Shown here: in pieces, positions 3,216-62,331 of the stretch
Numbering within the stretch: the stretch's first letter is position 1
How the letters are laid out: each line of letters opens with the position of its first letter
Assembly: GCF_024502345.1 (NCBI RefSeq)
Contig: NZ_JALDNN010000001.1
Source: Escherichia coli
GTDB lineage: Bacteria > Pseudomonadota > Gammaproteobacteria > Enterobacterales > Enterobacteriaceae
Reading direction: 5' to 3' (one strand)
DNA length: 64,000 bases
Translations under genes and position numbers: made by a program
Notes under the pieces: generated by a model
What the model saw: the letters and a program-made list of their open reading frames with translations, nothing else
Database searches by the model: none
Told to the model about the DNA's origin: nothing

Positions 3216-3302
3216 GACCCATTTATGCTGATATAAATTTAACTCAGACCAGTGCTTTTAGTTCTTCCTGCATATATGTTGAAAAGTATTCAGGATTTTT
3301 AA

Positions 3303-6407: not shown

Positions 6408-7103
6408 ATGCGAATTCTGGCTATCGATACCGCGACAGAGGCCTGCTCTGTCGCCCTGTGGAACGACGGTACTGTCAACGCTCATTTTGAGCTTTGCCCT
6501 CGTGAACATACTCAACGAATCTTACCGATGGTGCAGGATATCCTGACCACCAGCGGAACTTCCCTGACTGATATTAACGCTCTGGCTTACGGGCGCGGCC
6601 CCGGTAGCTTTACCGGCGTGCGCATTGGTATTGGCATCGCGCAAGGGCTGGCGCTTGGCGCGGAATTACCGATGATTGGCGTCTCCACGCTAATGACGAT
6701 GGCGCAAGGGGCGTGGCGCAAAAACGGCGCAACACGCGTGCTGTCAGCCATTGACGCGCGAATGGGCGAAGTTTACTGGGCCGAATATCAGCGTGATGAA
6801 AACGGTATCTGGCACGGTGAAGAAACCGAAGCTGTACTCAAACCCGAACTCGTTCATGAACGAATGCAACAGCTTTCCGGCGAATGGGTGACGGTAGGGA
6901 CGGGCTGGCAAGCCTGGCCGGATCTCGGTGAAGAGAGCGAGCTGGTTTTGCGCGATGGCGAAGTGTTACTCCCCGCTGCAGAAGATATGCTGCCGATTGC
7001 TTGTCAGATGTTTGCCGAGGGTAAAACGGTGGCGGTGGAACATGCCGAACCGGTTTATTTACGTAACAACGTCGCATGGAAGAAACTTCCGGGCAAAGAA
7101 TGA
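6408..7103 (+). CDS. tsaB: tRNA t6A37 threonylcarbamoyladenosine biosynthesis protein
   Basis: 231-aa [20 protein letters not shown]... Confidence 0.92.
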
Positions 7104-7142
7104 ATCTTAAGAGTATGCCCTGAGAAAAAAAGGAGTCGCATC

Positions 7143-7724
7143 ATGGCGGTTCAAAAGAATGTTATCAAAGGCATACTGGCAGGTACGTTTGCGCTAATGC
7201 TGAGCGGTTGTGTCACTGTGCCGGACGCCATTAAAGGCAGCAGTCCCACGCCGCAACAAGATTTAGTTCGGGTGATGAGTGCGCCGCAGCTGTACGTTGG
7301 TCAGGAGGCACGCTTTGGTGGCAAAGTGGTTGCGGTACAAAACCAGCAAGGGAAAACCCGCCTGGAAATTGCTACCGTACCGCTGGACAGCGGAGCCAGA
7401 CCGACGCTGGGAGAACCTTCTCGCGGTCGCATTTATGCCGATGTGAACGGTTTTCTGGACCCGGTGGATTTCCGTGGACAACTGGTTACGGTAGTCGGGC
7501 CAATCACTGGTGCGGTTGACGGCAAAATCGGCAATACGCCCTATAAATTTATGGTGATGCAAGTAACGGGTTACAAACGTTGGCATTTAACCCAGCAGGT
7601 GATTATGCCGCCTCAGCCGATTGATCCATGGTTTTATGGCGGTCGTGGCTGGCCCTATGGCTACGGCGGATGGGGCTGGTATAATCCCGGCCCCGCGAGA
7701 GTACAAACAGTTGTAACTGAATAA
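7143..7724 (+). CDS. yeaY: Slp-family outer membrane lipoprotein
   Basis: 193-aa ORF with lipobox LSGC. Confidence 0.85.
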
Positions 7725-7752
7725 TTGCTTGTTTTTAAAGAAAAAGAAACAG

Positions 7753-7770
7753 CGGCTGGTCCGCTGTTTC
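7753..7770 (+). promoter_or_regulatory. putative FadR operator (distal) within hairpin downstream of yeaY
   Basis: gctggtccgctgtttc resembles FadR consensus ANCTGGTCNGACNTGTT; also forms stem gaaacagcgg/ccgctgtttc. Confidence 0.4.
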
Positions 7771-7839
7771 TGCATTCTTACGGTAAAGATAAAAATAAAT
7801 AGTGACGCGCTTCGCAACCTTTTCGTTGGGTAATTATCA

Positions 7840-7856
7840 AGCTGGTATGATGAGTT
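7840..7856 (+). promoter_or_regulatory. putative FadR operator (proximal) in fadD promoter
   Basis: agctggtatgatgagtt, about 75 bp upstream of fadD start. Confidence 0.45.
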
Positions 7857-7928
7857 AATATTATGTTAACGGCATGTATATCATTTGGGGTTGCGATGAC
7901 GACGAACACGCATTTTAGAGGTGAAGAA

Positions 7929-9614
7929 TTGAAGAAGGTTTGGCTTAACCGTTATCCCGCGGACGTTCCGACGGAGATCAACCCTGACCGTTATCAATCT
8001 CTGGTAGATATGTTTGAGCAGTCGGTCGCGCGCTACGCCGATCAGCCTGCGTTTGTGAATATGGGGGAGGTGATGACCTTCCGCAAGCTGGAAGAACGCA
8101 GTCGCGCGTTTGCCGCTTATTTGCAACAAGGGTTGGGGCTGAAGAAAGGCGATCGCGTTGCGTTGATGATGCCTAATTTATTGCAATATCCGGTGGCGCT
8201 GTTTGGCATTTTGCGTGCCGGGATGATCGTCGTAAACGTTAACCCGTTGTATACCCCGCGTGAGCTTGAGCATCAGCTTAACGATAGCGGCGCATCGGCG
8301 ATTGTTATCGTGTCTAACTTTGCTCACACACTGGAAAAAGTGGTTGATAAAACCGCCGTTCAGCACGTAATTCTGACCCGTATGGGCGATCAGCTATCTA
8401 CGGCAAAAGGCACGGTAGTCAATTTCGTTGTTAAATACATCAAGCGTTTGGTGCCGAAATACCATCTGCCAGATGCCATTTCATTTCGTAGCGCACTGCA
8501 TAACGGCTACCGGATGCAGTACGTCAAACCCGAACTGGTGCCGGAAGATTTAGCCTTCCTGCAATACACCGGCGGCACCACAGGTGTGGCGAAAGGCGCG
8601 ATGCTGACTCACCGCAATATGCTGGCGAACCTGGAACAGGTCAACGCCACCTATGGGCCGTTGCTGCATCCAGGTAAAGAACTGGTAGTAACGGCACTGC
8701 CGCTGTATCACATTTTTGCCCTGACCATTAACTGCCTGCTGTTTATCGAACTGGGTGGGCAGAACCTGCTTATCACTAACCCGCGCGATATTCCAGGGTT
8801 GGTAAAAGAGTTAGCGAAATATCCGTTTACCGCTATCACTGGCGTTAACACCTTGTTCAATGCGTTGCTGAACAATAAAGAGTTCCAGCAGCTGGATTTC
8901 TCCAGTCTGCATCTTTCCGCAGGCGGTGGGATGCCAGTGCAGCAAGTGGTGGCAGAGCGTTGGGTGAAACTAACAGGACAGTATCTGCTGGAAGGCTATG
9001 GCCTTACCGAGTGTGCGCCGCTGGTCAGCGTTAACCCATATGATATTGATTATCATAGTGGTAGCATCGGTTTGCCGGTGCCGTCGACGGAAGCCAAACT
9101 GGTGGATGATGATGATAATGAAGTACCACCGGGTCAACCGGGTGAGCTTTGTGTCAAAGGACCGCAGGTGATGCTGGGTTACTGGCAGCGTCCCGATGCT
9201 ACAGATGAGATCATCAAAAATGGCTGGTTACACACCGGCGACATCGCGGTAATGGACGAAGAAGGTTTCTTACGCATCGTCGATCGCAAAAAAGACATGA
9301 TTCTGGTTTCCGGTTTTAACGTCTATCCAAACGAGATTGAAGATGTCGTCATGCAGCATCCTGGCGTACAGGAAGTCGCGGCTGTTGGCGTACCTTCCGG
9401 CTCCAGTGGTGAAGCGGTAAAAATCTTTGTAGTGAAAAAAGATCCATCGCTTACCGAAGAGTCACTGGTGACTTTTTGCCGCCGTCAGCTCACGGGCTAC
9501 AAAGTACCGAAGCTGGTGGAGTTTCGTGATGAGTTACCGAAATCTAACGTCGGAAAAATTTTGCGACGAGAATTACGTGACGAAGCGCGCGGCAAAGTGG
9601 ACAATAAAGCCTGA
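7929..9614 (+). CDS. fadD: long-chain fatty acid CoA ligase
   Basis: 561 aa from TTG at 7929 ([14 protein letters not shown]...); AMP-binding motif [11 protein letters not shown]; ORF-track start at 7863 is a 22-codon upstream extension. Confidence 0.92.
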
Positions 9615-9633
9615 GCGTTAAGTCAGTCGTCAG

Positions 9634-9659
9634 ACGCCGGTTAATCCGGCGTTTTTTTT
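9634..9659 (+). terminator. rho-independent terminator of fadD
   Basis: acgccggttaatccggcgt stem-loop followed by T8. Confidence 0.8.
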
Positions 9660-62181: not shown

Positions 62182-62331
62182 TGTTGACTCCGAATGCTGG
62201 TTATCTATCCAGTGTAACAGGCGGGAAGCGATTAAAAAAGAGGCGGGTTGATGACAAAGGTTACACCGTCTGACGTGCTACGCCTGTCAGGCCTATTCGA
62301 CTCCTGCAATGCATTGAATTTGCATAGTTTT

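Follow-up and report, generated by a model that had tools for sequence, protein, structure and literature searches.

The region is the tsaB-yeaY-fadD-rnd locus of Escherichia coli, as identified from the genes under its genome match; "the window" denotes the whole stretch of 64,000 nucleotides that was analyzed. Positions 7100-8100 of the window find a match in 5,425 of 5,426 complete E. coli genomes, and the 226 bases from 7715 to 7940, which include the spacer between yeaY and fadD, are 100% identical to K-12 MG1655. The stop codon of yeaY occupies 7722-7724, and rnd is the next gene after fadD. The two coding sequences that flank the spacer are the following.

7143-7724, + strand: yeaY coding sequence, encoding an Slp-family lipoprotein and preceding fadD; from the RefSeq annotation of identical E. 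coli records and the list of open reading frames.
7929-9614, + strand: fadD coding sequence, 561 amino acids, annotated with a TTG start; from the RefSeq annotation.

At the other end of fadD, the small RNA sroD (Rfam, 115 bits) lies at 9573-9658 on the + strand, overlapping the last 42 nt of the gene and its 3' UTR, and strong 3' ends are found in this region in Term-seq data. On the - strand, Rfam gives a match at 62289-62331 to the sRNA family ES036 (CssrF) that is borderline, with 38.0 bits against a gathering score of 37.6.

Related loci were collected with one pattern scan of a genome collection using degenerate first fadD codons. The scan returned 120 loci, mostly from Enterobacteriaceae with a few from Erwiniaceae, which together with two E. 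coli loci made a set of 122; at least 260 nt of sequence upstream of the start codon was available for 116 of these. The contig of one locus (L094) is labelled Chryseobacterium sp. 18061, yet it carries a typical Enterobacteriaceae yeaY-fadD spacer with the proximal operator, the hairpin and the TTG start described below, which suggests contamination or mislabelling of that assembly.

The initial annotation of this DNA had proposed two FadR operators upstream of fadD on the basis of two CTGGT half-sites about 85 bp apart. Both half-sites are present on the + strand, at 7756-7760 (distal) and 7842-7846 (proximal), and the measured spacing is 86 bp. They fall within the following 17-bp sites.

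7840-7856, + strand: proximal FadR site (site 1, OD1), the main operator, AGCTGGTATGATGAGTT, centred at -21; identical to the published probe, strong binding.
7754-7770, + strand: distal FadR site (site 2, OD2), a weak binder, GGCTGGTCCGCTGTTTC, centred at -107; identical to the published probe.

We take OD1 (proximal, site 1) and OD2 (distal, site 2) to be the names used by Black in 1992; a literature search for these two names returned nothing relevant.

The pentamer CTGGT by itself is weak evidence against chance. It occurs 224 times on the two strands of the window (3.5 per kb), and the probability of finding at least two copies in the 204-bp spacer is 0.16 for both strands and 0.05 for the same strand. 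We also scored the window with a 17-bp FadR matrix made from five sites outside fadD, namely those of fadL (two), fadBA, fabA and fabB, with the site sequences taken from the primer table of PMC4259882. The proximal 17-mer scored 13.1 bits and ranked first among the 127,968 17-mers of the window. The distal 17-mer scored 6.7 bits and ranked 91st of 127,968, its left half alone matching the motif. Because of this rank the distal site is inseparable from chance by its sequence, and since the sequence is uninformative here, its status rests on published binding data. One could read both half-sites as chance copies of a common pentamer unrelated to FadR, as the frequencies given above would allow, but we give this reading next to no credence: published footprints and gel shifts used exactly these sequences, and no 17-mer of the 64 kb outscores the proximal one, which is invariant throughout the family. 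For the proximal site, the published binding data refute a chance origin.

The matrix also picked up CACTGGTCTGAGTTAAA at 3238-3254 on the - strand, with a score of 12.97 bits that nearly equals that of the proximal fadD operator. It sits in the gap where the 3' ends of yoaH and yoaC converge, outside any promoter, and is probably a chance match. Other high-scoring matches in the window were set aside because they fall within coding regions or in the gaps separating convergent genes.

Two FadR sites in the fadD promoter were described by Feng and Cronan (2012, PLoS One 7:e46275, PMC3460868). The oligonucleotides used for gel shifts, GTAATTATCAAGCTGGTATGATGAGTTAATATTATG for site 1 and GAAACAGCGGCTGGTCCGCTGTTTCTGCATTCT for site 2 (PMC3460868; PMC4259882), are identical to the window at 7830-7865 and 7747-7779, respectively. 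In these experiments FadR bound site 1 with about the affinity that it has for the fadL sites and bound site 2 more than 10-fold more weakly than site 1, and 25-50 uM oleoyl-CoA abolished binding at both fadD sites (PMC3460868). According to PMC3460868, the gel shifts agree with the DNase I footprinting that Black et al. published in 1992 (J Biol Chem 267:25513); the comparison with published fadD footprints that the initial annotation had called for thus places FadR at both sites, by way of that later account. Because published footprints and gel shifts cover both sites, the proposal of two FadR operators is confirmed and was already known: 7840-7856 and 7754-7770 are the known FadR sites of the fadD promoter, footprinted in 1992, and they are not new. 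Deletion of fadR derepressed a fadD-lacZ fusion merely 2-3-fold, a value that takes both sites together (PMC3460868), and fadD-lacZ has been reported to be about 2-fold up in the fadR W60G mutant strain K113. An ArcA site overlaps site 2 by 1 bp (PMC3460868). The PdhR regulon paper places no site at fadD.

Transcription of fadD starts 60 bp upstream of the start codon (PMC3460868). In the window this gives the following elements, in addition to the proximal operator.

7869, + strand: fadD transcription start (A); 7929 - 60 = 7869, from the published start.
7856-7864, + strand: -10 region TAATATTAT, placed from the published transcription start and the sequence.
7834-7839, + strand: -35-like TTATCA, a provisional assignment; the proximal FadR site fills the spacer between TTATCA and the -10 region.
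7798-7819, + strand: CRP-cAMP site with the core AGTGA-N6-TCGCA at 7801-7816, centred near -60.5, a Class I position.

With A7869 as +1, the proximal site covers -29 to -13, a position compatible with repression. Since it fills the promoter spacer, which is the usual occlusion geometry, we infer that FadR bound there occludes the promoter. CRP-cAMP bound a published probe that corresponds to 7783-7830, and its site was classified as Class I and located between the two FadR sites (PMC3460868); the exact core AGTGA-N6-TCGCA is our own putative reading. A consensus promoter scan returned a single hexamer pair at 7855-7884, which was disregarded as it disagrees with the mapped start.

All 116 Enterobacterales loci carry the proximal site, and its distance from the start codon hardly changes among them. 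The CTGGTA and GAGTT segments of the site are invariant, with zero entropy for CTGGTA over the 116 loci, and the family consensus is AACTGGTACGCTGAGTT, which departs from E. coli AGCTGGTATGATGAGTT in three places. More than 90% conservation is also seen for the CRP core, among 111 distinct sequences, and for the -10 region, whose TAATAT(T/A)AT is kept in almost all loci. As a side observation, the FadR matrix assigns the Escherichia proximal operator 13.1 bits versus 10.4 for the family consensus.

In the reading that we favor, these elements work together as follows. FadR, a GntR-family dimer that recognises a 17-bp imperfect palindrome, fills the -35/-10 spacer when bound to the proximal operator and touches the -10 region, and in this way would deny RNA polymerase access to the promoter of the A7869 start. 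FadD's own product, long-chain acyl-CoA, binds FadR and causes its release, after which CRP-cAMP bound near -60.5 activates transcription.

Upstream of these elements, the distal half-site lies in a hairpin that the initial annotation had described as a perfect 10-bp structure able to terminate yeaY.

7745-7771, + strand: perfect stem-loop AGAAACAGCGG-CTGGT-CCGCTGTTTCT with an 11-bp stem and a 5-nt loop, as folded.

The hairpin is indeed perfect, and its stem is 11 bp long rather than 10. It begins 20 nt past the yeaY stop; the arms are AGAAACAGCGG at 7745-7755 and CCGCTGTTTCT at 7761-7771, and the distal CTGGT is exactly the loop. In a 66-nt context the fold has an energy of -21.6 kcal/mol (z = -3.4 versus shuffles), and the 29-mer alone gives -17.2 kcal/mol. 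Of the 116 related loci, 112 have the hairpin; 97.4% of cells are paired in it, and 5 of the 11 stem pairs have undergone compensatory change. The covariation score for these 112 loci is 0.197, compared with 0.100 in shuffles (0 of 500 reach 0.197) and at most 0.088 in slid controls. The remaining 4 loci have a different, unrelated G+C-rich hairpin followed by a T-run at the same place. The loop is far freer, with 30 variants among the 112 loci. Because the stem covaries while the loop varies, the conserved function of 7745-7771 is most likely the termination of yeaY, for which the hairpin is a putative signal as judged from its sequence.

In E. coli itself this function is plausible rather than proven, since the T-run on the + strand is poor (tail GCATTCTTAC, 4 T in 10) and a yeaY 3' end is absent from the supplementary tables of one Term-seq dataset (Adams et al. 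2021). The missing entry may reflect low yeaY expression. A + strand tail with at least 5 T in 10 was found in 74 of 112 loci, and many genera are T-rich at this position. The proposed role in ending yeaY is made plausible by the covariation across relatives and weakened by these two features of the E. coli sequence and data. Like bidirectional intrinsic terminators, the hairpin combines a G+C-rich stem-loop after a stop codon, an A-rich 5' flank, a T-containing 3' flank and covariation; it departs from them in its poor + strand T-run, an unusually invariant core CAGCGG/CCGCTG and the lack of a mapped 3' end in the Adams 2021 data. A terminator scan flagged the hairpin on the - strand alone, where the T-run TTTTCTTT is found at 7737-7744. 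Separately, we note that on the - strand (tail TTTTCTTTAA) 7735-7771 resembles an intrinsic terminator more closely than it does on the + strand. As fadD is on the + strand, there is no convergent gene downstream, and on the - strand the hairpin may serve to end antisense or divergent transcripts that originate in the fadD promoter region.

The position and the conservation of the distal FadR site are quite different from those of the proximal one. Centred at -107, the distal site lies outside the -35, -10 and +1 elements where a repressor would be expected, and its CTGGTC was kept in just 24 of 112 loci. By genus, CTGGTC occurs in Escherichia (6/8), Klebsiella (4/5), Salmonella (1/1) and Citrobacter (5/19) and is absent from the Enterobacter (0/20) and Raoultella (0/5) loci. 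The distal TGGT has an entropy of 1.0-1.9 bits, compared with 0 for the corresponding bases in the proximal operator, and counterparts of the distal site in other species have a median score of 3.2 bits with the FadR matrix. CTGGT is nevertheless the commonest single variant among the 30 loops. Both fadD sites were described as 'largely conserved' in Citrobacter, Klebsiella and Enterobacter (PMC3460868); that remark holds for the proximal site and the spacing and fails for the distal CTGGTC.

The distal site has CTGGTC as a good left half-site and nothing more. It coincides with the loop and 3' arm of the likely yeaY terminator, and the stem-loop, rather than the FadR half-site, is the element that has been conserved in evolution. 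We conclude from this comparison that the distal half-site is probably a weakly constrained feature of the loop, either a lineage-specific auxiliary site or a by-product. Because it sits in a terminator loop and is poorly conserved, it can be argued to be dispensable or lineage-specific, and we infer a minor role for it.

Whether that role is nil in vivo is less certain. If so, the site would be a weak, decaying or fortuitous half-site, and control would be exerted by the proximal operator alone. The scatter of CTGGTC among the genera, the high entropy of TGGT in the loop, the covariation of the stems next to a free loop, the matrix rank of 91 and the more than 10-fold weaker binding (PMC3460868) all favor this view. 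FadR does, however, bind the distal site in vitro and, by the account in PMC3460868, was footprinted there, and the prevalence of CTGGT among the loops and its retention in most Escherichia, in Salmonella and in most Klebsiella loci could reflect lineage-specific selection. On balance we regard the absence of any regulatory role as a serious possibility, rated a little below an even chance.

A regulatory contribution could take the form of cooperation, in which FadR dimers at -21 and -107 would act together through a DNA loop or through bending by CRP to tighten repression. The geometry would permit this: with 86 bp, or about 8.2 helical turns, from centre to centre, the sites fall roughly on one face of the helix; the hairpin and the proximal site keep a fairly steady separation, 90-93 bp in 107 of 112 loci; and the site for CRP, which bends DNA, lies between the two FadR sites. 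FadR is a dimer that binds one palindrome, and we know of no evidence for tetramers, which speaks against contacts between distant dimers. Repression of fadD is moreover just 2-3-fold, below that of the single-site fadBA and fadH promoters (PMC3460868), and the distal half-site is absent in most species that have the same spacing. Because most such species do without it, the constant spacing is explained by the terminator, the CRP site and the promoter architecture. Cooperation between the sites is thus unlikely in our estimation.

The location of the distal site on the hairpin raises another option, namely that, when fatty acid is absent, FadR sitting on the terminator blocks transcription that would run on from yeaY into fadD, or helps to stop it. 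The site is exactly on the terminator hairpin, 20 nt past the yeaY stop; read-through is conceivable because the + strand T-run of E. coli is weak; and a location near -100 is an unusual one for a repressor of a promoter, described as surprising in a 2022 review (PMC9329746). FadR binding to this site is weak, however (PMC3460868), and the half-site is absent in most relatives, and we hold a role of this kind to be quite improbable. In its fullest form, to which we attach a similarly small probability, the distal site would be a fatty-acid-sensitive roadblock or insulator against yeaY read-through rather than a promoter operator, with the half-site being borne by the ancestral terminator loop in Escherichia, Salmonella, Klebsiella and a few other lineages. 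The corollary that in most other Enterobacteriaceae the loop has drifted, with nothing but the terminator left, is a speculation of equally slim likelihood.

Taken as a whole, the spacer is in all probability the classical fadD promoter, with an occluding proximal operator and a weak distal half-site in a likely yeaY terminator. Binding, ligand release, the transcription start and the 2-3-fold derepression come from the literature, and the present analysis contributes sequence identity and conservation.

The translation start of fadD was considered next to the promoter, since the initial annotation had held that a TTG start should limit initiation. The RefSeq start is indeed TTG, at 7929-7931, and the signals around it are these.

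7918-7923, + strand: Shine-Dalgarno sequence GAGGTG, separated from the TTG by 5 nt; across 92 distinct 5' UTRs, AGAGGTG shows essentially no variation.
7887-7898, + strand: candidate alternative start, with GGGG at 7887-7890, a 5-nt spacer and an in-frame ATG at 7896-7898, giving a 572-amino acid FadD.

The annotated start codon is TTG in 102 of the 122 loci and GTG in 20, and it is never ATG. Since all 122 loci combine a non-ATG codon with the invariant AGAGGTG, weak initiation at TTG or GTG has plausibly been selected. The GTG starts are all outside Escherichia, in Klebsiella, Raoultella, Leclercia, Silvania and some Citrobacter and Enterobacter.

The ATG at 7896 lies 33 nt (11 codons) upstream of the TTG and inside the mRNA. 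An ATG at -33 followed by an open frame to the TTG or GTG was present in 92 of 92 distinct 5' UTRs, and the GGGG and 5-nt spacer before it are conserved. The 33-nt stretch is free of indels, whereas the spacing between proximal site and start codon differs by up to 6 nt among loci. Mean entropies at codon positions 1, 2 and 3 of this stretch are 0.45, 0.63 and 1.07 bits (Mann-Whitney p = 0.005), the other two registers giving no significant difference; with its variation concentrated at third positions, the stretch behaves in evolution as coding sequence does, and the encoded extension peptide is conserved as M-T-T-N-x-x-F-R-G-(D/E)-x. Stops in the other two frames were dropped as a control, as the conserved ATGA makes a TGA in one frame in every sequence.

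Published data also bear on the upstream start. The Hon-yaku predictor (2007) listed fadD as a candidate multi-start gene, with a value of 0.663 for the site 11 codons longer and 0.013 for the TTG; in that paper the true sites were those of the EcoGene data set, in which TTG is the fadD start. Tetracycline ribosome profiling (Nakahigashi et al. 2016, Table S5) reported for fadD a previously unreported alternative N-terminal start at -33, giving 572 amino acids, with a low signal (TetRP 4.04, CmRP 0). fadD thus belongs to the two-start genes listed in that study, but with a low signal and without an N-terminal peptide in its supplement. Two later supplements, one from the TRAINSPOTTER N-terminomics paper and one from a riboproteogenomics study of N-terminal proteoforms, contain no mention of fadD, and the peptide string TTNTHFRG was absent from the paper texts searched. 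Both the 561- and the 572-amino acid forms of FadD are found in public protein databases. Ten residues of the FadD N-terminus were reportedly sequenced by Black in 1992; if this is right, the TTG is a real start and dual initiation is likely. fadD probably has two starts, yielding proteins of 572 and 561 amino acids. The statement that the TTG limits FadD synthesis is accordingly supported in part: the non-ATG start is conserved, but ribosome profiling points to initiation at the conserved in-frame ATG at -33 as well.

An RNA switch in the fadD 5' UTR (7869-7928) was considered and dropped, as the region folds less stably than shuffles (z = +2.1). The block TGGGGTTGCGATGACGACGAA at 7886-7906 is more than 90% conserved across the family, which fits a translation initiation region better than an RNA structure.

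The discovery value of these results is small, as the fadD promoter is a textbook case whose sites were footprinted more than 30 years ago. The additions are modest, namely a distal half-site that is poorly conserved within a covarying terminator hairpin and comparative support for an upstream ATG. The latter affects the annotation of FadD and its expression in constructs for fatty-acid engineering.

Compared with OD1 and OD2 of the E. coli fadD promoter, the sites in the window are identical, and the spacer, which matches K-12 throughout, shows no sequence difference. Among the fad promoters, those of fadD and fadL alone have two FadR sites, and both are also co-regulated by CRP and ArcA (PMC3460868). 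The fadL sites are 8 bp apart and bind FadR equally, whereas the fadD sites are separated by 68-69 bp (68 bp as published) and their affinities differ more than 10-fold (PMC3460868). The single operators of fadBA, fadE, fadIJ and fadH carry the 17-bp motif aaCTGGTCnGACC(T/A)Gtt and overlap the -10/+1 region (PMC9329746). The proximal fadD site fits this pattern of occlusion, and the distal site near -107 lies outside it.
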